Shown piece after piece: positions 4,173-51,147 of a stretch of 51,974 nucleotides of DNA (positions are counted from its first letter, which is position 1; each line of letters opens with the position of its first letter). The DNA lies in IMG/VR virus record IMGVR_UViG_3300028802_000021, positions 1 to 51,974 of that record; one strand, given 5' to 3'. This DNA is from a virus (Duplodnaviria; Caudoviricetes). Made by a program: the position numbers and the translations under genes. Under the pieces are notes generated by a model. The model searched no databases. It saw only the letters and a list, made by a program, of their open reading frames with translations, and had not been told where the DNA came from.

Positions 4173-4208
4173 AAAAACCCCGCCCGGGTGTCCGGGCGGG
4201 GTTTTTTT
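4173..4208. terminator. Bidirectional intrinsic terminator
   Basis: AAAAACCCCGCCCGG-GTGT-CCGGGCGGGGTTTTTTT between convergent genes. Confidence 0.9.
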
Positions 4209-5738: not shown

Positions 5739-5776
5739 AAAACCCCGGCAGGGGGCAACCTCTGCCGGGGTTTTTC
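5739..5776. terminator. Bidirectional intrinsic terminator
   Basis: AAAACCCCGGCAGGGG-GCAA-CCTCTGCCGGGGTTTTT. Confidence 0.85.
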
Positions 5777-17669: not shown

Positions 17670-17705
17670 AAGGGCGGGACTGTCATCACTGACAGCCCCG
17701 CCCTT
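17670..17705. terminator. Hairpin between convergent genes
   Basis: AGGGCGGGACTGTCA-TCAC-TGACAGCCCCGCCCT. Confidence 0.65.
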
Positions 17706-21839: not shown

Positions 21840-22060
21840 GGACAGGTCAGGGCACATCCAGGGCACATCAGGTCGAGCGAGGGTGGTCATCGTTGGACAC
21901 GGTTGGATAGTAAAACCCCAGGTCAGAGGCGGTTTGGGTCATGTCCGCCCTGGTCCGTTTAGTCCGTGTCCAGTTGTTTCAGGAAGTTACCAAATGTGCC
22001 CTCTGACCTGGGGTTTTGTCGGCAACCAGGCCCCTGAGGGCACATCTAGGGCACACTAGG
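21840..22060. other. attP region with arm-type repeats
   Basis: AGGGCACA at 21849, 21860, 22037, 22048 and inverted at ~21995; 18-bp IR 21912-21929/22000-22017; directly downstream of int. Confidence 0.75.
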
Positions 22061-23233
22061 GAGGATCTGGCGCAGGTTTTCTCCGACGATCGCCCTCGTC
22101 TTGCCGTCACGGTCGGCCACCAGATGTGAGTAGTACTTGAGGGTCGTCGATTGGTTCGCGTGACCGAGTAGCTCCGAGACCTCAGATATCGGCCTGCCCT
22201 TGTAGATCAGCGTGGAAGCGTAGTAGTCGCGAAGCTGATGCATGGTGACCGACGCCAGCTGCTGAGATCGCACGGTGTTCTGGATGGCCTCAGTTCCCGC
22301 AAGCGCATTGGCCGCGACGGCGAATTCTTCGGCGGCGGCACGACGGGCTCGTTCCCAGGGCCAGGCCTGGAAGACCCGCGCATTCATCAGCCCATTCTGG
22401 GGTCGGGTGAAGAGGTATCCCCCGGGCGCTGGCGGGAATTCCCTCACGTGGCGAGCGAGCATGTCGATCATCTCCAGCGGTACCGGGATGATGCGATCCT
22501 CGTAGTTCTTCAGGGGGCGTGAAACGATCCCCCGACCGCGTTCCATCTGAAGCTGCTGCTGAAAGTGCACGGTGGGTGATTCCGTGTTGGCCCAGTTCAC
22601 GTCGGCCATCCGGAGGCCGAAAAGCTCGCCCTGACGTCCACCAGTCGCGGCGCCGAGTGCGATCAGCGCACGATAGCGGGCATCGATATTGGCGATGAGG
22701 GCGGCAACCTGGACTGCCTCCAATAGCCACATCTTCGCGGGTGCACCCTTCGGCAGTCTGACGCCGATGCAGGGGTTCCCGGAGATAACCCTCTTCAGCG
22801 CGGCGGCTTTGAAGATTCCTCGCACAAGAGTCATGTGCGTGCGAATGGTGCTCGCCTTGAGGCCGCTCTCAAGCATGGACTGGATCAAGACGGTGATGTC
22901 ATCGTCCTTGATGGCGAGCATCTGCTTGGCACCCAGGACCGGGTAGACGTGCAGCTTGAGCGTCCCCTTACTGGCGACACGGTAGTTATGCGACGCCGTC
23001 AGCCTCTCGTGCCAGGCGTCGGCGAAATCCCTGAAGGTCTGCTTGCCCTTCTTGGGGTCGACGTAGGTGTGATCCCGAATGGATACTTCCGTGGTGAGCT
23101 GGAATGCTTCGGCGAGACTCTTGCGCTCGAAGTTCCTCTTGCGCTGGACGCCTTGCGGGTTGCGCCAGCGGTATTGCCAGCCGACCCGCTTTCCGTTGTC
23201 GTCAAAAAGCTCGCTGATGGTCCCTTTACTCAC
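22046..23233 (-). CDS. int: Tyrosine integrase
   Basis: TGGRQGELFGL (R), PLK (K), HQLRD (HxLR), LLGHA, YYSH (Y); GTG with AGGTGG SD. Confidence 0.95.
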   Translation of the reverse strand: MSKGTISELFDDNGKRVGWQYRWRNPQGVQRKRNFERKSLAEAFQLTTEVSIRDHTYVDPKKGKQTFRDFADAWHERLTASHNYRVASKGTLKLHVYPVLGAKQMLAIKDDDITVLIQSMLESGLKASTIRTHMTLVRGIFKAAALKRVISGNPCIGVRLPKGAPAKMWLLEAVQVAALIANIDARYRALIALGAATGGRQGELFGLRMADVNWANTESPTVHFQQQLQMERGRGIVSRPLKNYEDRIIPVPLEMIDMLARHVREFPPAPGGYLFTRPQNGLMNARVFQAWPWERARRAAAEEFAVAANALAGTEAIQNTVRSQQLASVTMHQLRDYYASTLIYKGRPISEVSELLGHANQSTTLKYYSHLVADRDGKTRAIVGENLRQILPSVP

Positions 23234-23321
23234 TGGCTTTCCACCTGACTGGGGGTCCGGATGATGATCTTGCTGGTGGCACCCTAGATCACCAGGGCAC
23301 AGAACACAACTACCAAGCGAC

Positions 23322-23528
23322 CTATCGGAGCTGGTTACGCACCCACTCGTCGACATCCTCCAGCCGGTAGCGGACGTTGCGTCCAATCTTGTGCCGGCGC
23401 GGACCTGTTCCCCGGGTGTTCCACCGATAGACCGTGTTATCCGGGACCTGGAGGTAAGCGGCAACATCTTCCACCGTGAGCATCGGCTGACGAGTATCGG
23501 CAACCGATACCTGCTTGCGGTTAGTCAT
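23322..23528 (-). CDS. xis: Excisionase
   Basis: MLTVEDVAAYLQVPDNTVYRW...GP...KIGRNVRY; upstream of int. Confidence 0.85.
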   Translation of the reverse strand: MTNRKQVSVADTRQPMLTVEDVAAYLQVPDNTVYRWNTRGTGPRRHKIGRNVRYRLEDVDEWVRNQLR

Positions 23529-41106: not shown

Positions 41107-41776
41107 TGGTGGTTTCCTGTTCCTCTCGTGACCTGGCGGCCAGGTATGCGGTCTCCGCGTCCAGCTCCAGCACCTCGAACTGTTTGCGGCACAAAAAAAC
41201 CGCCCCGGAAGGGCGGTAGGGGGTGGACGAATCTCCAGGTGGGTCGTCAATGGGGGGTGGGGCCTGTTTCACGCCGATGAGTTCCGTCATCGGGTTCATG
41301 CCGAGCGGGGTGGGCCCGACTTCGTGCAGGAACAGGTCGAGGAGTTCGTTGGCGTCGTTGTCTTTGCTGCGCTGCTCGTTGATGACGTCGTAGGTGAACG
41401 AGAACTGCTTCACCCGGCGGTTCTTCATCAGATGCCGGACCTGCTTACCCATGCCGAAGTCATCGAGGCGGGCTTTGACGTACAGGCCGCCGTGTTCCCG
41501 GACCCAGTCGTTGACCCAGTCGGGCATGTCGGCGCCGGTGTCGAGTTCTTTCGCCTCGATGACCTCGCCGATGTTCATGGACGGGTCATCCAGGCGGTGT
41601 GACCAGTAGACCGGTATCGGGGCCCCCGAGTTCGCCCAGTGTTCCAGGCTTTTCTTGAACGCCCCGGGACGCACGATGTCGCCGCCGTAGTCCTTGTTGT
41701 CGAACACCGATACAACAGCCTCGAAAACTCCCTCATCGTCGGTGGTGATCGTTGCGGGCATGCTCTTGTGTTTCAT
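41099..41776 (-). CDS. HK97-family prohead protease
   Basis: SVFDNKD.GGD.V.PGAF...WSH...GLYV...FSFTY...L.EVGPT..GMNP. Confidence 0.95.
   Translation of the reverse strand: MKHKSMPATITTDDEGVFEAVVSVFDNKDYGGDIVRPGAFKKSLEHWANSGAPIPVYWSHRLDDPSMNIGEVIEAKELDTGADMPDWVNDWVREHGGLYVKARLDDFGMGKQVRHLMKNRRVKQFSFTYDVINEQRSKDNDANELLDLFLHEVGPTPLGMNPMTELIGVKQAPPPIDDPPGDSSTPYRPSGAVFLCRKQFEVLELDAETAYLAARSREEQETTNA
41193..41217 (-). terminator. Intrinsic terminator embedded in the protease 3' coding region
   Basis: Minus strand ACCGCCC-TTCCG-GGGCGG-TTTTTTT. Confidence 0.6.
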
Positions 41777-43071
41777 CAGCCACTCCCGACGGGCTTGGGT
41801 CCAGGGGGCTTCCCATTCGATTCCTCATTGGACGGGTTGTTAGGGGCGGTGTCCCTGGGCGAGGCCAGTCCGCCGGCGGTGACGTTCAGCGGGGTGATGA
41901 GCTCTTCCGCTTCCGGCAGGTCGGACAGGTTGTACAGGGCCCGGCCTTCGTTGCGGGTCATCCAGGGCCCGCCGACGGATGCGCTGATCGCTGCTGCCTG
42001 GGTTTCGAAGGAGCCTTGCATCTTGGCCTTCAGGTTGAACTCGACGTAGATCTTGGACGCTCCGGCGGGGTCGACGTCGGGGAGCAGCTGCAGTTCGATG
42101 TCCTGCTGCAGCATCTCCAGCAGCGGGCCCAAAGCGTCGGCGTACAGCATTTTGCGGAGCTCGCCCAGCGATGACTGGTTGGCGCTTTTGGACATGCCCA
42201 GCATCGACGGGTCGACGTGGTAGGCGGCGGCGACCTCTTCACGGGAGAGCTGCCGGGCTTCGATGTACTGGGCGTCTTTCGGGGTGATGCCACCCTCGTG
42301 CCAGGACATGCCGTCCTCAAGGATGGGGGTTCCTCCAGCCTGTTGGGTGGAGCTGTAGGCACCCCAGTCGGTCATGAACCTTTGCCGGGCGGTGGACGAC
42401 CAGCGGGGGGCCTTTTCGGGCCGGGTGATGAAGCCGGAGATCCGGGCCCCGTTGCGCCACATCTGCTCGCGGTATTCGGCGGCGGCGTATTCCTCTTGGA
42501 GGAGCTGCTTGAGGGTTTCCAGCGGCGGGTAGCCGTCTCGGGGGGTGCTGGGGTTGTAGCCGTAGAAGTGGACGACCTGGTCGGGGTCGAGGTCGATGGG
42601 GCCTCGGGTGCCTTGGATCCGGTATTTGTCGGGGGCGAGGGGGTTGCTGCCGACAAGTTGGACGAACCGGCGGGGGACGGGGTGGACGCCGTTGGAGCCG
42701 TCGGGGGCTTTGGCTTTCAGCCAGAACGCCGAGTTGAAGATCGAATACTCCTGGACCGTCCAGTTGATCAGCTTGTATTTACTCCACTTCGACCCCGGCC
42801 AAGGATCATTGAGCAGCTTCGACAGCGGATGATCGCGGACCTTCTCCCTGTCGGTGTCGGAGGTCCGCTCGAAGACGTCCAGCCCGAGCTGGGCGACGTT
42901 ACGGCCGAGGAAGTCGATGACAGTCCGCACCGCCGGCTGCTTCTGGTAGATCTGCTCGTAGCTGCGGAACTGCTCGGGGCCCACCTGAATGAACGCTGGC
43001 GGGTCCAGGCCCAGGATCGTGTTATTCGGGCGGACCTGCTTGATGACTCCTGCGGTCAACGCGAAAGGCAC
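41776..43071 (-). CDS. HK97-family portal protein
   Basis: HPL..LL..P; NGA..SG; ILEDGM; EVAAAYHV.P.MLG; WMTRNEGR. Confidence 0.95.
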   Translation of the reverse strand: MPFALTAGVIKQVRPNNTILGLDPPAFIQVGPEQFRSYEQIYQKQPAVRTVIDFLGRNVAQLGLDVFERTSDTDREKVRDHPLSKLLNDPWPGSKWSKYKLINWTVQEYSIFNSAFWLKAKAPDGSNGVHPVPRRFVQLVGSNPLAPDKYRIQGTRGPIDLDPDQVVHFYGYNPSTPRDGYPPLETLKQLLQEEYAAAEYREQMWRNGARISGFITRPEKAPRWSSTARQRFMTDWGAYSSTQQAGGTPILEDGMSWHEGGITPKDAQYIEARQLSREEVAAAYHVDPSMLGMSKSANQSSLGELRKMLYADALGPLLEMLQQDIELQLLPDVDPAGASKIYVEFNLKAKMQGSFETQAAAISASVGGPWMTRNEGRALYNLSDLPEAEELITPLNVTAGGLASPRDTAPNNPSNEESNGKPPGPKPVGSG

Positions 43072-43104
43072 CGCGTACTCCTTTCGGGTGACGTGGTGGG
43101 GATT

Positions 43105-43332
43105 TCACTCCGGGTCGGGGGTTTTCGGGGGTGCTACCTGCAAATACAGGACCCGGTGCCGTTCGATGTAGACGTCGCCGTCGAGTCGCTGCGGTTCGAG
43201 CTCCCGCGAGTACAGGGTGGTGTCGGACAGCACGAGCAGCGGCCCCGACCTGCGAATGAGGACCCCGTCGAGGGCGGAACCGTCGACGAGGTTCACCAGG
43301 ACCCGGTCGTAGACGGGCCAGCGAGAGAACAT
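43105..43332 (-). CDS. 75-aa Sm/LSm-fold-like protein
   Basis: RVLVNLVDGSALDGVL....LLVLSD...DGDVYIER..VLYLQ matches Sm1/Sm2 spacing. Confidence 0.55.
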   Translation of the reverse strand: MFSRWPVYDRVLVNLVDGSALDGVLIRRSGPLLVLSDTTLYSRELEPQRLDGDVYIERHRVLYLQVAPPKTPDPE

Positions 43333-43556
43333 GATCCGTTAGCTCCATATGGGTGACAGAAATTGCGGCGGCGGGCCCGGTTCTGCATGCTGGGTGCCGG
43401 AAGTGAGCGAGAGATAAGCCCGGCTCCCGCCGGTGGTTCTCTCCATCCGTCGCTTCTCGCTTTGCCGGTAGCGTGGAATCCCTTTGGCGTCGACTGCTTG
43501 GGTTCCTGAAACCGGCGCAGTGGACCCTCCCGTCTGCGGGTGGGAGGGTCTGTTAC

Positions 43557-43630
43557 AGCGCGGTGGAGCAGCCCGGTAGCTCGACGGACCCATGATCCGG
43601 AGGTCGCCAGTTCGAATCTGGCCCGCGCCA
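43557..43630 (+). tRNA. Initiator-like tRNA-Met (CAT), non-canonical anticodon arm
   Basis: AGCGCGG/CCGCGCC-A; GAGC-AGCCCGGTA-GCTC; ACGGA-CCCATGA-TCCGG; GCCAG-TTCGAAT-CTGGC; CCA not encoded. Confidence 0.85.
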
Positions 43631-43751
43631 CAGGGGGGTTGTTCGCGCGTTCCGAGCTTGTTGGACGCTCAGCCGGTCTTGCTCGGACCTTCGGCGCGGA
43701 CAACTCCCCGTCCAGCCCGGCCCTGATGGGGTTCTGGGGGGATGGAACACG

Positions 43752-44002
43752 GCAATGCCGTGTCACTCAAGGGCGCGGCGGCTACCGGAAGACTCCAGCG
43801 AGGTTTTCCGGCCCGCCGCGTTCTTCACGTCCGGGTGACGGCGGGTTGCGTCCCGGTGTCCGGCCATTATGCTGAGACGGTCCGGATCGCCTATGCGATC
43901 TTCGGACCTGGTTAAAGCGGGGCAGTGCCTCGCCACTCAAGGGCGCGGCGGCTACCAGGGGCAGGCACACTTCCCTGGCCCGCCGCGTTCTTCTATGGGC
44001 GA
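43752..44002 (+). repeat. Two copies of a rod-like hairpin motif (43752-43849 and ~43930-44002)
   Basis: Identical CACTCAAGGGCGCGGCGGCTACC...GGCCCGCCGCGTTCTTC enclosing different but paired apical stems. Confidence 0.85.
43846..43873 (+). promoter_or_regulatory. Candidate sigma70-type promoter TTGCGT-N16-TATGCT
   Basis: Consensus-like hexamers; predicted start ~43879 coincides with the first base of a hairpin. Confidence 0.5.
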
Positions 44003-44154
44003 CGCCAGGGCCAGGCGGAGCCACCTACGGCCAGGTGGACGGCGATGGCGAGCAGACCGGCGATGGTGAAGGCGGAGACATATTCGCCGCCGGTGTCTAT
44101 GAGGTCGAGCAGGAGCGCCACTCCGAAGAGGATGGCGGCGGCGACGGCGAACAT
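43993..44154 (-). CDS. 53-aa two-TM protein, holin candidate
   Basis: MFAVAAAILFGVALLLDLIDTGGEYVSAFTIAGLLAIAVHLAVGGSAWPWRRP; ATG abuts endolysin stop; not in ORF track. Confidence 0.65.
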   Translation of the reverse strand: MFAVAAAILFGVALLLDLIDTGGEYVSAFTIAGLLAIAVHLAVGGSAWPWRRP

Positions 44155-44898
44155 CTACTCGGCGCCTTCGCCGAGGACTGCCACCTTGAGCTCCGCCAGG
44201 TCGTCCTTGATGTCCTTCAGGTCGCATTTAACCCACTGAAGGTCGCGCCCGTTGTAGCCGATGCCGGCGTTGACGCCCATCGTCGGGTTCGGGTCGTTCG
44301 TCGGCACCGGGTTGCCCTTGGAGTCGTAGCGCTGCACACAGTCCTCGTAGGCGGCGGTGGCGAGCGCCTTCTTCCCGTCGGTGCTCTTGGACCAGTTCGT
44401 CATCCACTTCTTGAAATCGGATTCGTTCATGGTGTCACCCCACTCGTCGACGAGACCCCAGGAGCTGGTGTCGTTCTCGTTTGTCGTGTCGTACTTGGCG
44501 GAGAAGTGGCCGTGCTTGTCGTGCGGGTTCGAGCCGGTGTAGTTGCGCCAGTTCCAGCCGTTGGACTCTTCGGCGATCTTCTTGTTCCAGATGACGTAGT
44601 AGAGCCTGTCGTCCTTGTTGTTCTTGTGGTTGTTGACGATGAGGTTGATGGCGTCGGTGAAGGTCATCCCGTTGGGCCAGGGTCCGGTGCAGTCGACGTC
44701 GATGGCGTGGACTTCGTTGATCGAGTCGGAGTCTTCTCGGGAGGTGGCGCCGGTTTCGTCGGGGTTGTGGTCGGAGGTGCTGCTGGCGTGGGCGGAGTCG
44801 CCGATGGACCCGTCGGTGGAGTCGTCTCGGTCGGGGTTGAGCTCGTCGAACTCGTCGAATAGGGATTTGAGGCAAGGGATCAGCACCCAGCTCGCCAT
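44155..44898 (-). CDS. Endolysin (M15-like Zn peptidase)
   Basis: DGSIGD.AH....SDHNPD...VHAIDVD...YVIWN...W..YTGSNPHDKHGHFS; SD GAGGAGG. Confidence 0.8.
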   Translation of the reverse strand: MASWVLIPCLKSLFDEFDELNPDRDDSTDGSIGDSAHASSTSDHNPDETGATSREDSDSINEVHAIDVDCTGPWPNGMTFTDAINLIVNNHKNNKDDRLYYVIWNKKIAEESNGWNWRNYTGSNPHDKHGHFSAKYDTTNENDTSSWGLVDEWGDTMNESDFKKWMTNWSKSTDGKKALATAAYEDCVQRYDSKGNPVPTNDPNPTMGVNAGIGYNGRDLQWVKCDLKDIKDDLAELKVAVLGEGAE

Positions 44899-44978: not shown

Positions 44979-45233
44979 GTGACGGAGGAACAGAGTCCGG
45001 TGCTGCTCGGCGTCCTGATAGCACTGCTGGGAGCTTCCACCGCGTTCAGCTTCGGGTACCTGAAGCACCGGCTGGAAAGATCGAACTCCGACTACAAGGA
45101 CACGAAGGCCAAGGTGGTGCCGCTGCGGAAGGCGTATTGGCTGGCCTGGTGGGCGGCGGTGAAGGTCGGCTTCTGGGTGTTCATCGTCGGGTTCATCCTG
45201 GTCGCCTGGGTGTTCAGCGATGCGCAGAAGTAG
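44979..45233 (+). CDS. Two-TM membrane protein
   Basis: Two hydrophobic helices; first gene of inverted cassette. Confidence 0.6.
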   Translation: MTEEQSPVLLGVLIALLGASTAFSFGYLKHRLERSNSDYKDTKAKVVPLRKAYWLAWWAAVKVGFWVFIVGFILVAWVFSDAQK

Positions 45234-45516
45234 CACCCCGCACGAGCCGGGCCCCGGGTGCCGCGACGACCACTGCTACTCGTGCAATCTGGACGAGCCC
45301 TTAGAAGGGGGCTACTACATCCTCTGCGGCGAGTGCTTCCACGTGTACTACACGAAAGCGGAACTGCGCCGGGCCTACCGTCGGGTCTATTGGAGGACGC
45401 ACCGTTGGGCCCCGTTCGGCGGCCCCCCGACGCCGATGTGGCGGATCCTGTGGCGGGTACTGACAGTACGGGCCAAAGACATCTACTTCTGCCAGGAGTG
45501 CACACATGATTTCTAG
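45220..45516 (+). CDS. Zn-binding hypothetical protein
   Basis: CYSC, CGEC.H, FCQECTHDF. Confidence 0.65.
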   Translation: MRRSSTPHEPGPGCRDDHCYSCNLDEPLEGGYYILCGECFHVYYTKAELRRAYRRVYWRTHRWAPFGGPPTPMWRILWRVLTVRAKDIYFCQECTHDF

Positions 45517-45835
45517 GGTGAACCAGCTCGACGCCCTGTATGCGCGGGTGCCGAACATCAACTGCAAGGGTCTGTGTTACGAAACGTGCGGGCCGATCAT
45601 TCCGATGGCGGCGGCGGAGCAGCAGCGGACCGGGCTGCCGACGGTGAACTGGCACGACAACCAGTGCGCCGCGTTGACGTACGAGAATCGGTGTGCGATC
45701 TACGCCGAGCGCCCGCTGATATGCCGCCTGTACGGGACGGTGGAGGACTTCACCTGCGAGTTCGGGTGCGAGCCCGACAGTCACCTGACACCCGCCGAGG
45801 GGCGCGAGCTGATCCGGGAGTCGCAGGAGATCTGA
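45506..45835 (+). CDS. YkgJ/UPF0153-like cysteine-cluster protein
   Basis: CKGLC..TCGP...C..L....C.IY..RPLICRLYG. Confidence 0.8.
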   Translation: MISRVNQLDALYARVPNINCKGLCYETCGPIIPMAAAEQQRTGLPTVNWHDNQCAALTYENRCAIYAERPLICRLYGTVEDFTCEFGCEPDSHLTPAEGRELIRESQEI

Positions 45836-45841
45836 CAAGGC

Positions 45842-46002
45842 TTCCCCGGGTACCCTCCCGCGTTCCCGAGTCGACGCGGTGGGGGCGTGTTGCGGCCCCG
45901 GGGAATCCCCCAGGATGGTCTCCCCGTAGGAGTGGGTGAGCTTCCCTGGGGGTCGGGGGCCTGCGCGTCATGGGGTGCAACCCGCGCAGGCCCCCACTTT
46001 TC
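45842..46002 (+). promoter_or_regulatory. Three-hairpin structured intergenic element ending in a terminator
   Basis: TTCCCCGGG/CCCGGGGAA; CCCCCAGG/CCTGGGGG; GGGGGCCTGCGCG/CGCGCAGGCCCCC-ACTTTT. Confidence 0.55.
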
Positions 46003-46023
46003 TTCCCCGAGAGGAGCCCGTTG

Positions 46024-46290
46024 ATGACAGACGAGGTAGTGACGTTGACCCTGCACATCCGCAAAGAGGTCTACGAGCGGATCTGGACTGCCGCTGCCCG
46101 CAACGGCATGTCCCGGACGGCGGTGGTGAACGAATATGTGGAGCTGTTCGACAGCATCGCCACCTCGCCTTCGGGAACCCGGATGAAGGTCAGACTGCTT
46201 CGCGACGGCACCGAACTGTGGGTGGATGTGGTGCGTAACGACATCGCCGGTGGGAGACGCCGGCGATGGCAGTGGTTCAGACGATCATGA
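46024..46290 (+). CDS. Ribbon-helix-helix DNA-binding protein
   Basis: VTLTLHIRKEVYERIWTAAARNGMSRTAVVNEYVE; SD GAGGAG. Confidence 0.7.
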   Translation: MTDEVVTLTLHIRKEVYERIWTAAARNGMSRTAVVNEYVELFDSIATSPSGTRMKVRLLRDGTELWVDVVRNDIAGGRRRRWQWFRRS

Positions 46291-47968
46291 GGTTTCCGTC
46301 CTCATAGGCGGACCGGATCGTCTCCATGCCCTCCCGCGACTTCCACGCGTTGACCGCCATCGCCGCCGCCGGAACCGCGTCGATGCGGGCCTTGTCCCTG
46401 CCCCGCTCCGGTTTCACCGGGCGCACCAGATTGGGGTCGTACGGAGCATGTCGGACTTCGCACTGATCGAAACAGTAGCGGGCCACTGGGTTGCCGTGAT
46501 GCCGCAACAGTCCCCGTTTGACGGTACCCATCAGGTCTGTCATCCCGGGACTCATGCGATCGTAAGTGTTGCGGTACGCCGTCAGTTCGCCTTCTTCGAT
46601 GTCGAGCTTCAACACGTCGGCGATCCGGTTGATGATCGGCCACATCGACCACTCGTCGCAGTCCGCGGCGACGATCCGGTAGGCCTTCGCATCCTCGGCG
46701 ATATCGTCGATGACCTTGTCGTAGTCGATGACGGAGCCTTCGGTGATCGTCAGCCAGCCCTGTTTCGCCCAACGCGTGAACTTGCCGTCGTGAAGCTGGT
46801 CAAGGCGTTCCAGCCCCGACTCGGGCAGCCAGAACCGCCACATGATGTGTGCCGGGTCCTCGTTCGGCTCCTCTCCTGGGACCACCACCGCCCATGCGGT
46901 CAGGTCGAATTTCGCGGCTAGGTCGAACCCGGCGTAGGCGATGCGGCCGTGCAACTCCTTGTTGTGCCAGTGCGGGTTCAGCCACAGGTTGCCGGTGCAG
47001 GTATCCCACAGGTGCATCGGCATCCACCGTGACGACTGCGCCACCCACTGGTTGAGCCGGAACTGGCGGAAGGCGTTCTCCTTCGCCGGGTCGTTGCGGG
47101 CCTCCTGGGCTTCGTCGCGCAGCGACTGCCAGGACAGGAACTCGCCCAAAGCCGGGTTGGCAAGAGGCCACAGGGTTTCGTCCCAGGGGTCGGCGTCGGC
47201 GGGGATGTTCTTGATGTAGACGAAGATGTGCGGGGCCCGGTCCGGGTTCTCGGCGATCTTCAACATCTCGTCGTGTTCCTGCTTGGCGAACGACTGCGGA
47301 TCGTCGCCGGCGGTGGTGGCGGCGACCATCAGCGGCTGGACCCGGGCGCCCATGCCGGTGCGCATGGCATTCCACAGGTCGGAGTTCTTCTGGGTAAGCA
47401 CTTCATCGAAGACGATGCCGTGGGGGTTGTGGCCCAGGTTGCCGGCGGAGTCGGAGGCGACGGCTTCGTAGTAGGAGCCGGTGGTGGTGTCGTAGATCCG
47501 CTTCGCCTGCTTGTTGATCTTCAGCCTGGAAGAGAGCAGCGTCGACAGGTGCACCATGCGCTCGGCGACGTCGAAGACCTTGCGGGCCTGGTCCCGGTCC
47601 ATGGCGGCGCCGTAGATCTCGGCACCCTCCTCATCGTCGGCGATGAGCAGGTACAGGGCGATCCCAGCCAGAATCTCCGACTTGCCGTTCTTGCGGGCAA
47701 CCTCCACCCAGGCCAGCCGGTAGCGGCGCACATAGCAGTCGTGCTCTGTGGACCAGGTGACCTTGCCGAACAGCGGGGCGATGATGTCGTCGAGCTGCCA
47801 CTGGGAGAGCCGGAACGGGGTCCGGGACCAGCGACCCTTGGTGTGGACGAGGATTTCGGCGAAAAACGCATTCACGTGTGCGACTCGGGGCCCGCACAGG
47901 TGGTCTCCGCGCTTGGTGCAGGCGATGTCGTCGAATGTTTTTCCACATTGGGGCAGCCGCTTAGGCAC
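46277..47968 (-). CDS. terL: Terminase large subunit
   Basis: VARKNGKS (Walker A), IVFDEV (Walker B), TTAG, GFDLA...DLTA, RIDAV.A. Confidence 0.97.
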   Translation of the reverse strand: MPKRLPQCGKTFDDIACTKRGDHLCGPRVAHVNAFFAEILVHTKGRWSRTPFRLSQWQLDDIIAPLFGKVTWSTEHDCYVRRYRLAWVEVARKNGKSEILAGIALYLLIADDEEGAEIYGAAMDRDQARKVFDVAERMVHLSTLLSSRLKINKQAKRIYDTTTGSYYEAVASDSAGNLGHNPHGIVFDEVLTQKNSDLWNAMRTGMGARVQPLMVAATTAGDDPQSFAKQEHDEMLKIAENPDRAPHIFVYIKNIPADADPWDETLWPLANPALGEFLSWQSLRDEAQEARNDPAKENAFRQFRLNQWVAQSSRWMPMHLWDTCTGNLWLNPHWHNKELHGRIAYAGFDLAAKFDLTAWAVVVPGEEPNEDPAHIMWRFWLPESGLERLDQLHDGKFTRWAKQGWLTITEGSVIDYDKVIDDIAEDAKAYRIVAADCDEWSMWPIINRIADVLKLDIEEGELTAYRNTYDRMSPGMTDLMGTVKRGLLRHHGNPVARYCFDQCEVRHAPYDPNLVRPVKPERGRDKARIDAVPAAAMAVNAWKSREGMETIRSAYEDGNLMIV

Positions 47969-48021
47969 CGGTTTCACCTCCCCGAACGAGTGACATGGCG
48001 CACCGGGCGTCACTTACATGC

Positions 48022-49233: not shown

Positions 49234-49417
49234 CGACCGGGTGGTGCACCTGAACGCGTCGCGGATGGTCCGGTGGGCGAAGAAGGTCGGCGCGCAGGAG
49301 TTCGGCTTCTATGTGGTGATCGACGGCGACCGGATAGTGATCCCGCTCAGCCTGACAGAAGACGAGACGGACCCGGGCCCTGAACCGTCTCCTGAACCTG
49401 AGACTCCCCCACTCTGA
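49223..49417 (+). CDS. HTH-less QEFG-motif microprotein
   Basis: NASRMVRWAKKVGAQEFGFYVVIDGD; GTG with GAGGGG SD. Confidence 0.65.
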   Translation: MTDDDRVVHLNASRMVRWAKKVGAQEFGFYVVIDGDRIVIPLSLTEDETDPGPEPSPEPETPPL

Positions 49418-49832
49418 GCCCTCCTCGGGCTGACGGGGTCAGTCCGAAGTGGCGGGCGTAGTCCTTCATCAGGTTGGACGCTTCGCGCATGATGCTGGTG
49501 GCGGGGTGCTTGAGGGGGCCTCGGGGGCTGTCGATGACGAGTCCGTCGCGTTGGATCATCCGGGATGCCTTGCGGAAGGTGACGACTGCTTCGCAGTAGC
49601 CGTGGAGGATGTCCCGGTCGGCGGGGGCCACCGTTTTCATGATCTCCAGCTGCCGGAGGGTGTATTCCCAGACCTCGATGACTTCTTTGTCTTTCGACGG
49701 GCAGATGGGGGTGCCTTCTTCGGGGATGGGTTCGTCGTTGTTGACGAGTTCGGGGTGGCCGCCTCGGAGAAGCTTGAGGGCGTTGGGTGTGCCGCCGGCG
49801 GTGCGGCTGCCGGGTGGTCGTCCTCTGCCCAT
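49347..49832 (-). CDS. terS: Terminase small subunit, P27 family
   Basis: P.ALKLLRG.HP...W...D...L.GYCEA...KHPA...FGLTPSAR; SD GAAAGGA. Confidence 0.92.
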   Translation of the reverse strand: MGRGRPPGSRTAGGTPNALKLLRGGHPELVNNDEPIPEEGTPICPSKDKEVIEVWEYTLRQLEIMKTVAPADRDILHGYCEAVVTFRKASRMIQRDGLVIDSPRGPLKHPATSIMREASNLMKDYARHFGLTPSARGGLRVGESQVQETVQGPGPSRLLSG

Positions 49833-50036
49833 GATCGGTTCCTTTCGGTGGGTCTTGAGGGTGGCGAGGTCTTGTCCTCGCCCATACGGGTGGCGATAGC
49901 ATCCAGTTGCGCGCCGGTGTGAGATAATCGCCGGGCAGTTCCAGCAGGGGTTACCGTCCCGGCCCACCACCCCTTCAGGTTCTCCGCCACGCAAGCTTCG
50001 AAGCTGAAGAAGGGCCGGGACGGTCTTGAGGAGGGC

Positions 50037-50216
50037 ATGGCGCCGATGAGCGACGACGAGGAACAGCCGTGCGTCTGCGGCAGGCAGCGCATCAAATCCA
50101 TCCAGGACATCGCCGACCACTTCGGGTTCACCTACCAGCAGGCGTTCGACTACGTGCTCACCATCGGCATCGCCCACTCCCAATCCGCCCTCACCCAGAA
50201 AGAGCCCGGCGAATGA
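50037..50216 (+). CDS. Small HTH-like protein
   Basis: SD GAGGAGG; KSIQDIADHFGFT; ATGA overlap; not in ORF track. Confidence 0.55.
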   Translation: MAPMSDDEEQPCVCGRQRIKSIQDIADHFGFTYQQAFDYVLTIGIAHSQSALTQKEPGE

Positions 50217-50464
50217 TCGACAGAGAAAGGATTCCGTTGGCGGAAATGATCATCAACACCATCGCCAACCGTCCCGGCGCCCAGCCCAAGACACCGGAAA
50301 TCCCGAAAAGCGTCGCCGAAGTCGCCGACAACTACGCTCTCACCACAGAAGAGGCCGGAGAGCTGCTGGTCGAGCTGGGGCTGCTCTACCTGCGTGACCA
50401 CACCCGCCAGGCCCACAAACTCCTCTGCGCCCTCGCCATCACCCCGCAGAAGGCCACCGAGTGA
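50213..50464 (+). CDS. Small HTH-like protein, possible paralogue of the previous gene
   Basis: KSVAEVADNYALT...LGL. Confidence 0.55.
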   Translation: MIDRERIPLAEMIINTIANRPGAQPKTPEIPKSVAEVADNYALTTEEAGELLVELGLLYLRDHTRQAHKLLCALAITPQKATE

Positions 50465-50796
50465 AAGCAGGAAGGTTTTTCAGCTTGTTCAGCGGCCGAG
50501 ACGACAACGCCGACGTCTACGTTGACCTTGACGGCACCCAAATCCCCGTCATCTCCGCCCGATACGAGCCCGGCGACAAAGCCCGAGTCGTCATACGACT
50601 CGATCAGCTCAAGCTGCTCGTCTATCTCGACAAGGTCAAAAACGCGCCGGAAGAGGAAACCTCCCCGCAGGTGCACCACCTGTCAGCGAATGGCGACCCG
50701 CACGTGAAAACGGGCGACTCCGTCACCGGGCGATGGGGCATGGTCGACTGTCCACAGTGTAAGCGGGCGTATACCGCCAAAGCGGCCAAGATCTAA
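50461..50796 (+). CDS. Hypothetical protein
   Basis: GTGA overlap; VHH...VDCPQC. Confidence 0.6.
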   Translation: MKAGRFFSLFSGRDDNADVYVDLDGTQIPVISARYEPGDKARVVIRLDQLKLLVYLDKVKNAPEEETSPQVHHLSANGDPHVKTGDSVTGRWGMVDCPQCKRAYTAKAAKI

Positions 50797-51078: not shown

Positions 51079-51130
51079 CGCGACTGGTGGAGCGGAAAAG
51101 GCCCTCTAGCGCGACTGGGGGGCCTTTTTC
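51076..51130 (+). terminator. Terminator hairpin with duplicated CTAGCGCGACTGG
   Basis: GAAAAGGCCCTCTAG-CGCGA-CTGGGGGGCCTTTT; 13-bp direct repeat at 51075 and 51105. Confidence 0.6.
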
Positions 51131-51147
51131 GACGAAAAGGAGCCTAA

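Follow-up and report, generated by a model that had tools for sequence, protein, structure and literature searches.

A tandemly duplicated, covarying hairpin unit beside the tRNA gene of an uncultivated phage, and its possible role in punctuating an antisense RNA array

The DNA studied here, called the window throughout, is a complete IMG/VR virus record (IMGVR_UViG_3300028802_000021; Duplodnaviria, Caudoviricetes) of 51,974 nt with a G+C content of 64%. Its structural genes are on the minus strand and include, besides the portal and both terminase genes listed in Table 1, those for the prohead protease and the capsid. The portal protein is at most about 46% identical to the portals of isolated Arthrobacter and Gordonia phages, and we therefore assign the record to an uncultivated actinobacteriophage lineage; the host is likely some actinobacterium. 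Between the large terminase and the portal lies a plus-strand module that runs antisense to the structural genes. A tRNA-Met gene, with homologues at the matching place in relatives, marks the head of this RNA array. The GC-rich hairpin directly upstream of it is replaced in relatives by a different yet pairing sequence (judged by eye and uncounted), and the long stem-loop directly downstream, SL-A, differs in stem sequence among phages with its pairing kept and carries a loop motif, CUCAGCC, that is common to the hairpin-bearing relatives. Two copies of a hairpin unit, W1 and W2, come next. No ORF lies in the spacer between them, and neither the retrieved loci nor the rest of the window contain a homologue of it. 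Downstream of W2 is a minus-strand cassette of two genes, shared by the window and the L006 contig alone, of which the longer has no Pfam match and the shorter ends in a stop codon (43993-43995) that adjoins the last base of the second-copy stem P2'. Small ORFs overlapping the units were considered as coding sequence and rejected: they do not pass the third-position GC test, nor are they conserved.

Table 1. Coordinates of the tRNA-hairpin region and of the structural genes around it (positions in the window).
Feature	Position	Strand	Basis or remark
Portal	41776-43071	-	structural gene
GC-rich hairpin directly upstream of tRNA	43522-43550	+	GGACCCTCCC ... GGGAGGGTC; by eye
tRNA-Met, anticodon CAT, antisense to structural genes	43557-43631	+	ARAGORN; Rfam tRNA model, 51.2 bits
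SL-A, long stem-loop directly 3' of tRNA	43633-43709	+	predicted fold, alignment
Unit W1	43747-43825	+	fold; covariance model, 93.4-94.6 bits vs 22.6 bits on reverse strand
W1 P1	43747-43763	+	7 bp, 3-nt loop
W1 linker CACUC	43764-43768	+	
W1 P2	43769-43781 with 43813-43825	+	13 bp
W1 internal loop	CUA 43782-43784 vs C 43812	+	
W1 P3	43785-43793 with 43803-43811	+	loop 43794-43802
Spacer between units	43826-43916	+	91 nt, unique sequence; own hairpin 43879-43908 (fold)
Unit W2	43917-43992	+	covariance model, 90.9-91.0 bits vs 15.4 bits on reverse strand
W2 P1'	43917-43933	+	three pairs changed relative to W1, all pair
W2 linker	43934-43938	+	
W2 P2'	43939-43951 with 43980-43992	+	
W2 internal loop	CUA 43952-43954 vs C 43979	+	
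W2 P3' and loop	43955-43978	+	
53-aa hydrophobic ORF, convergent	43993-44154	-	third-position GC 0.83; 75% identical homologue in L006
247-aa ORF	44155-44898	-	PHROG phrog_32486 (unknown function), E 2e-6
Large terminase	46277-48013	-	structural gene
Small terminase	49347-50183	-	structural gene

The region was found in two sequencing runs, both of DNA, and in none on record as RNA; it is present in full (share of words 1.00) in one of them only, a soil metagenome. An independent assembly, probably of the same soil sample, reproduces positions 43300-44300 with no differences, so the tandem arrangement is not peculiar to one assembler. A second soil study yielded a 312-nt contig that spans 43522-43831 and ends before W2; it departs from the window by three substitutions and one 2-nt insertion, all of them between the tRNA and the unit (the SL-A/linker region) and none in the tRNA or in W1.

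Each unit is built, in order, of a mini-hairpin (P1), a 5-nt linker, a long stem (P2), a CUA/C internal loop, an apical stem (P3) and a terminal loop. Both copies contain CACTCAAGGGCGCGGCGGCTACC and GGCCCGCCGCGTTCTTC, at start-to-start spacings of 170 and 167 nt, and over the 51,974-nt record the 18-nt left arm is met two times, each time forward, and a reversed control pattern not at all. P1 is a near-perfect 15-nt palindrome. P2 comprises 13 bp including a tandem G-U, and its upper eight GC pairs are invariant in all six copies known to us, as are the CUA/C loop and the two C-G pairs with which P3 begins. Between W1 and W2 the linker, P2 and the internal loop are identical, and compensated changes fall in P1 (three pairs) and throughout P3. 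The apex is the variable part: P3 ranges from 5 to 9 bp, the terminal loop varies, and the shortest tip is 5 bp closed by a 6-nt loop and the longest 9 bp closed by a loop of 14-15 nt, W2 having 7 bp, a 1-nt bulge, two further pairs and a 5-nt loop. P2 and P3 together amount to 22 bp in W1, 20-22 in W2, 22 in both L003 and L004 and 18 in L006; in L164 the helix is shorter or weaker and lower P2 is weak. The predicted folding energy is -49.8 kcal/mol for W1 (z -4.51) and -49.4 kcal/mol for W2 (z -4.49), and in neither case did any of 200 shuffles fold as well.

An initial annotation of this DNA had proposed a duplicated RNA motif in which a constant 13-bp stem, with its tandem G-U and a CTA/C loop, carries an exchanged but paired apex. 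Sequence and repeat families show both copies as it described them, and the folds agree. It located the core correctly, but it began the motif 5 nt too late and missed the 7-bp triloop hairpin P1 (43747-43763 and 43917-43933). The outer stems that it drew, GTCACTC/GGGTGAC and TCGCC/GGCGA, do pair in the window, yet they are absent from four relatives and make use of the 3' strand of P1; in W2, moreover, the 3' partner sits in the last codons of the minus-strand ORF at 43993-44154. We leave these outer stems out of the element, with whose P1 they compete.

Comparison across phages was made with six copies from five phage records, in an alignment that was fitted to the covariance model and is to that extent biased toward structure. 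In it 97.0% of 164 cells pair. Both sides have changed in 8 of the 29 pairs, against a shuffled mean of 3.5 and with a single shuffle in 500 reaching 8, and 14 cells are double changes, a count that none of the 500 shuffles reached (mean 4.2). When the 3' partner was slid by one to three columns pairing fell to 43-51%, and a plain MAFFT alignment of five copies returned the identical eight covarying pairs. Compensatory substitution is plain in P3, where four of nine pairs carry double changes. Covariation, to which the initial annotation had looked for support, is thus present, and its picture of a constant scaffold with a variable yet paired tip extends to other phages, P3 covarying while the upper pairs of P2 stay fixed.

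The wobbles show the strand: each of the 14 wobble cells is G-U or U-G when read on the plus strand and would be an A-C mismatch on the other, and the roughly 380 nt from 43632 to 44010 fold at -211.5 kcal/mol (z -5.85) on the plus strand as against -180.5 kcal/mol (z -3.75) on the minus strand, a difference of 31 kcal/mol. From P1 to the 5' arm of P2 the phages are 86-98% identical to one another, which compares with 85-99% for the tRNA and 34-68% for the SL-A region. In all six cases the unit and the neighbouring tRNA or tRNA-like gene share a strand. The unit is a conserved, plus-strand, single-stranded structure tied to tRNA-type genes.

The extent of the family was surveyed with two covariance models, R1 built from five copies and R2 from six. 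Candidate loci came from pattern scans of IMG/VR contigs and from a portal-protein scan (80 related loci), with only pattern-selected loci searchable. Over 80 loci (622,616 nt) R1 found just the five copies on which it was built, and over 54 pattern-selected loci it gained one new member, L164, at 56.8 bits. R2 with filters off returned W1 (93.4 bits) and W2 (90.9 bits) alone from the window, and from 89 further loci (764,957 nt) only the copies in G001 and L164; 20 more loci were also searched by covariance model, and L164 is the sole member added overall. The family consists of six distinct copies in five records, two in the window and one each in the L006 contig, G001, G006 and L164, all at one corresponding locus. 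A further contig, L005, matches at 90.5 bits and looks by eye identical to the G006 copy. The covariance-model search found no unit in close relatives that keep the locus (G002/L007, L008, G005/L012, L014/L020 and L018), nor in G003 and G004. Scores of 23 bits for L127 and 20 bits for L162 are covariance-model scores alone, and matches to the P1 pattern in L087-L089, which lie elsewhere in those contigs, were set aside as unrelated.

Beyond these loci, the exact core pattern was met in nine stretches among the genomes of 185,579 species and in five of a metagenome collection, in a scan that by its nature misses diverged copies. Apart from the L006 contig itself, these stretches score 15-26 bits with R2, as against 57-97 for true members; they have neither P1 nor the linker, and several are inside coding sequence. 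Rfam 15 at its gathering threshold recognised only the tRNA in the whole window, nothing at E up to 10 overlapped W1 or W2 within 43072-44160, and at E up to 0.1 seven related loci likewise gave only tRNA. A literature search of limited scope, confined to open-access papers, turned up nothing relevant on a described actinophage tRNA-linked RNA. The motif is confined to five uncultivated phage records and is dispensable in close relatives; it is new in sequence and in detailed architecture, and in kind it resembles RNase III hairpins and terminators.

What surrounds the unit differs from phage to phage. L006, G001 and G006 share with the window the order tRNA, SL-A, unit. On the 3' side in G001 and G006 there follow, on the same strand, a conserved structured stretch, a conserved leader and genes for small membrane proteins, whose homologues in the window are at 44979-45516. 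The unit of L164 is flanked by two elements, one tRNA-like but oversized and the other a mini tRNA-like helix whose CCA end is encoded, and both give only sub-threshold matches to the tRNA clan (tRNA-Sec-like). In the window and L006 the minus-strand cassette has been inserted at this point, its stop codon next to the last base of P2 in both. L006 has a single unit with a 5' flank of W1 type and a 3' flank of W2 type, and the window therefore has one extra 170-nt period. Taken over the five records, the unit lies between RNA units in three and at the end of the array in two, and the gap between terminase and portal emerges as hypervariable: it houses an antisense array made up of tRNAs, tRNA-like RNAs and hairpin RNAs, whose pieces are gained and lost independently. 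The U content of the tail varies with position: counted by eye over the 9 nt that follow the 8-bp GC core, it is 6/9 in W2 (tail UUCUUCUAU) and 5/9 in L006, the two copies that face a convergent ORF, 4/9 in W1 and L164, and 2/9 in L003 and L004.

No protein accompanies the unit in an obvious way. Among four complete relatives and the partial L006 contig no window protein showed clean co-occurrence with it; an ORF at 50461-50796 is shared with G001 only, in a sample (two or three carriers against three non-carriers) that is too small to be telling. Pfam and PHROG scans of about 38 ORFs gave no RNA-binding, reverse-transcriptase or nuclease partner nearby, and no transposase. The one recombinase found is a tyrosine integrase (22046-23503), 20 kb from the units.

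Reading these data from sequence, we tentatively favour, at a probability of about 45%, the view that the unit is a cis-acting RNA punctuation element, that is a processing or 3'-end-stabilising hairpin, of the antisense tRNA/tRNA-like array. A plus-strand transcription unit would start at the tRNA-Met and run antisense to the structural genes, and once transcribed the 18-22-bp rod should fold into a hairpin of great stability. A double-strand-specific endoribonuclease of the RNase III type, or some other host or phage factor, may recognise its invariant lower stem and internal loop, and the hairpin would block 3'-exonucleases, so that neighbouring tRNA and tRNA-like RNAs are separated and their ends defined. 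In the window and its closest relative, where the unit comes last before a convergent minus-strand gene and has a moderately U-rich tail, the tRNA transcript is probably also terminated, with the second tandem copy reinforcing the stop. Transcription, cleavage, termination and the identity of the recogniser are in each case what we infer from the structure and its setting.

The nearest likeness is to the RNase III signals of T7-type phages and of rRNA and tRNA spacers, which are likewise two-turn rods with an asymmetric internal loop and likewise recur within one phage, between the RNA or gene units of a longer transcript. Here, by contrast, the helix is GC-rich, invariant and 18-22 bp long, it is joined to a conserved 5' mini-hairpin and linker, and cleavage is putative; we know of no sequence relation between the unit and the T7 sites. 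Strict sequence invariance of a GC-rich stem also exceeds what RNase III normally needs, which counts against processing, as do the variable helix length (up to 22 bp, with only 18 bp in L006), the weak lower P2 of L164 and the existence of close relatives that do without the unit (G002, G003, G004, L008, L012, L014, L018). On the other side, one account of RNase III substrates describes internal loops as steering the enzyme to cut a single strand, with a stabilising hairpin left at the 3' end (PMC3867540), and a rod of about 22 bp with an internal loop fits such substrates and so supports the processing reading. The initial annotation had offered either a protein-recognised handle or a repeated processing site; the pattern of conservation suits both, while its suggestion that the tips carry different payloads finds no support. 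Against the rest of the phage genome the longest complementary stretch measures 11 nt for the W1 tip and 9 nt for the W2 tip, where shuffled tips average about 10 nt.

Termination is probably an added role of the unit in the window. It is harder to see the unit as nothing more than an intrinsic (bidirectional) tRNA-gene terminator, tandemly duplicated and conserved through recent shared ancestry, and we regard this as distinctly unlikely. Like a terminator, the unit is a GC-rich hairpin whose base is rich in A on the 5' side and in U on the 3' side, flanked by AAGGG and UUCUU much as in the phage terminator at 17670-17705, and both W2 and the L006 copy lie exactly at a convergent junction with the most U-rich tails of the family; tandem terminators and hairpin clusters are moreover common (PMC8355165). 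Yet the four evident bidirectional terminators of this phage (4173-4206, 5739-5774, 17670-17705 and 51093-51131) are short A-tract/GC-stem/T-tract hairpins in a style unlike the units, which are much longer, and a simple terminator scan flagged neither W1 nor W2. Terminators seldom retain a 13-bp stem and an internal loop without variation, together with a further hairpin on the 5' side, next to sequence that is just 34-46% identical; and, read from the minus strand, the tail has few U and the G-U pairs turn into A-C mismatches. The U-tract is weak or absent in three of six copies, and three of six are internal to co-directional units (inferred transcription units): the L003 and L004 tails are followed by conserved RNA and genes on the same strand, and L164 lies between tRNA-like elements. 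The best-studied relative of the likely host's enzyme is mycobacterial RNA polymerase. This polymerase is reported to accept imperfect U-tracts and not to terminate without a U-tract (PMC3993855); on that basis the L003 and L004 tails would not qualify, and termination is not the general function because the tail is U-poor or the unit internal in three of six copies. Termination alone would leave the extra hairpin, the invariant loop and the internal copies unexplained. A stand-alone small RNA, released by tRNA-processing enzymes and acting in trans while bound to protein, is the main rival reading, and we hold it to be possible if fairly unlikely. On this account the P2/CUA-C handle possibly binds a phage or host protein while the tip varies, the RNA serving as a decoy or inhibitor of an RNA-targeting defence of the host or as a regulator. 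The handle is invariant in six of six copies, with P1 and P3 changing by compensation alone; the unit is as conserved as the tRNA; processing sites on either side would be at hand in the flanking tRNA and odd tRNA-like elements; the hypervariable locus has an accessory look; and two diverged copies have been kept in one genome. Phage tRNA loci have also been linked to evasion of tRNA-targeting defences (PMC10264068, PMC11555353). What weighs on the other side is the lack of a partner protein by co-occurrence or among the roughly 38 ORFs, tip complementarity to phage targets that is not above chance, and a tiny family from which several close relatives are missing. A bolder form, which strikes us as unlikely, makes the unit a new class of phage small RNA from a tRNA-array 'RNA island', in which the handle would load a protein and the tip and P1 would tune specificity. 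Such an island would also hold the initiator-type tRNA with its altered anticodon loop and the oversized tRNA-like RNAs of relatives, and the RNA could, for example, be a decoy or inhibitor of a host defence that targets RNA or tRNA.

Explanations at the level of DNA fare worse. The unit could be imagined as a joint for recombination, in cruciform or single-strand-hairpin form, through which modules are exchanged in the hypervariable gap between terminase and portal, or as a palindrome bound by protein: its 3' edge is a mosaic junction, with the cassette beyond it in the window and L006 and unrelated RNA and genes in G001, G006 and L164; the mixed flanks of L006 are the pattern expected when recombination between repeats adds or removes a period; and P1 is palindromic. 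A dimer on duplex DNA, however, could not accommodate P2 half-sites that are spaced anywhere from 12 to 29 nt apart. Compensatory changes, together with wobbles that are G-T on one strand and never A-C, point to a single-stranded, strand-specific molecule, the sole recombinase is far off, and the shared orientation of units and tRNA-type genes in six of six cases has no explanation in DNA, so that we consider a DNA site very unlikely. A phage attachment site (attP) and an integron attC site were likewise rejected, given the distance to the integrase and a 91-nt spacer with neither ORF nor homologue. Most improbable is a mobile REP- or MITE-like repeat of host or phage, to which we give hardly any credence. 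Like REP/BIME elements and MITEs the unit is an imperfect GC-rich palindrome with more than one occurrence, and some 150 nt, reaching from W1 (3' arm) to W2 (5' arm), lie between inverted repeats, a layout that is formally MITE-like. It is unlike them in being undispersed, in direct orientation and marked by strand-specific wobbles, with one or two copies per phage at one locus, and its exact form is absent from host genomes. The initial annotation had named a host repeat of this kind as what would undo its reading; the exact-core matches are at chance level (15-26 bits, bar the L006 contig), and no transposase came to light in the Pfam and PHROG scans.

Structured RNAs other than tRNA are known from phage tRNA regions, and two comparisons help to place the unit. 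The tRNA region of T4 carries two small stable RNAs of unknown function, which likewise are structured non-tRNA RNAs lying among phage tRNA genes and co-oriented with them, and which tRNA-processing enzymes presumably release; the phage lineage here is unrelated to T4, and the likeness is one of description alone. GOLLD and ROOL, in Rfam, are large structured RNAs associated with phage tRNA genes. The window similarly has some 380 nt of highly structured non-coding RNA beside a phage tRNA, but there is no Rfam match at E up to 10 and the region is modular.

The present weight of the finding is limited because the distribution is narrow and the function is predicted from sequence. It provides as a resource an alignment, a covariance model and six members, and it draws attention to a little-noticed, antisense and hypervariable RNA array between the terminase and portal genes. 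As a compact and testable case, the motif pairs a sequence-invariant RNA handle with a freely covarying tip. If the punctuation reading is right, a new and well-defined RNA motif would join the few non-coding elements known from actinobacteriophages, and it could reveal by what means the tRNA transcripts of phages are punctuated and insulated against convergent genes. Should the bolder small-RNA reading be the true one, the unit could show in what way phages package small RNAs alongside their tRNAs.

The tRNA-Met at the head of the RNA array looks like an initiator tRNA. C at position 1 is opposed by A72 in its relatives, a mismatch that marks bacterial initiator tRNAs. The window's own tRNA is an aberrant copy: A1 faces C72, the first pair of the anticodon stem is non-standard, the anticodon loop reads CCCAUGA, with C33 instead of the usual U33 and also G37, and the Rfam tRNA model scores it at 51.2 bits versus 61.9-66.1 bits in relatives. 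Either decay of this tRNA or a variant anticodon loop, of a type discussed in connection with evading tRNA-targeting defences (PMC10264068), may account for these features. The stretch spanning the tRNA, the stem-loop SL-A and W1, the first copy of the hairpin unit (43522-43831), has a near-identical variant in X2, a soil metagenome run of a different study; the variant carries three substitutions and a 2-nt insertion, every one of these differences lying outside the tRNA and W1.

SL-A keeps its pairing between phages despite a completely different stem sequence, and its loop motif CUCAGCC, which is similar to the CACUCA of the unit's linker, is common to the window and the related records L006, G001 and G006. 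In another relative, L164, a similar stem has a related CUCAG in its loop. We also observed a second conserved structured stretch, with the 5' start GGACAGCCAGGTAAGAACCGGGGC, which in G001 and G006 comes after the hairpin unit and in L008, a close relative lacking the unit, directly after SL-A, downstream of the tRNA; Rfam gave no match to it at E up to 0.1. A separate observation is that the relatives L164, L012 and L014 carry tRNA-like elements that are oversized, at about 140-170 nt, and have a long insertion added to acceptor, D and T arms. ARAGORN made no calls among these elements and the L164 mini helix, and Rfam returned for the relatives' tRNA-like elements sub-threshold tRNA-Sec-like matches alone (19-22 bits).

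Locations of RNA features, neighbouring genes and terminator-like hairpins
Feature	Location	Strand	Description
tRNA-Met	window 43557-43631	+	
SL-A	window 43633-43709	+	stem-loop
Second structured stretch (G001/G006)	L003:700-1010	-	
Second structured stretch (G001/G006)	L004:1860-2150	+	
Oversized tRNA-like element	L164:9976-10114	-	
Mini helix	L164:9794-9840	-	T arm and encoded CCA end
Oversized tRNA-like elements	L012 and L014		downstream of own tRNA-Met
Two-gene cassette	window 43993-44898	-	247 aa (phrog_32486, unknown function) and 53-aa hydrophobic protein
Four small overlapping ORFs	window 44979-46290	+	opposite to flanking structural genes
Large terminase, two-piece match	G001:C1:13577-16237	+	
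Bidirectional terminator-like hairpins	window 4173-4206, 5739-5774, 17670-17705, 51093-51131		canonical

Between the array and the plus-strand small-gene operon lies the two-gene cassette, which the window shares with the L006 contig alone. Third-position GC is high in the four small overlapping ORFs, the first two of which are conserved in relatives; a 248-aa ORF that overlaps them on the minus strand (45092-45838) is probably not a gene. The large terminase match of G001 is split into query residues 14-112 and 111-578, with a gap of ~960 nt between the two pieces, all within a single 926-aa open frame, and this arrangement suggests an intein-like insertion.

Each of the four predicted terminator-like hairpins of the window combines an A-tract, a GC stem, a 4-5-nt loop and a T-tract, suggesting that ordinary intrinsic terminators are in use with the host polymerase.
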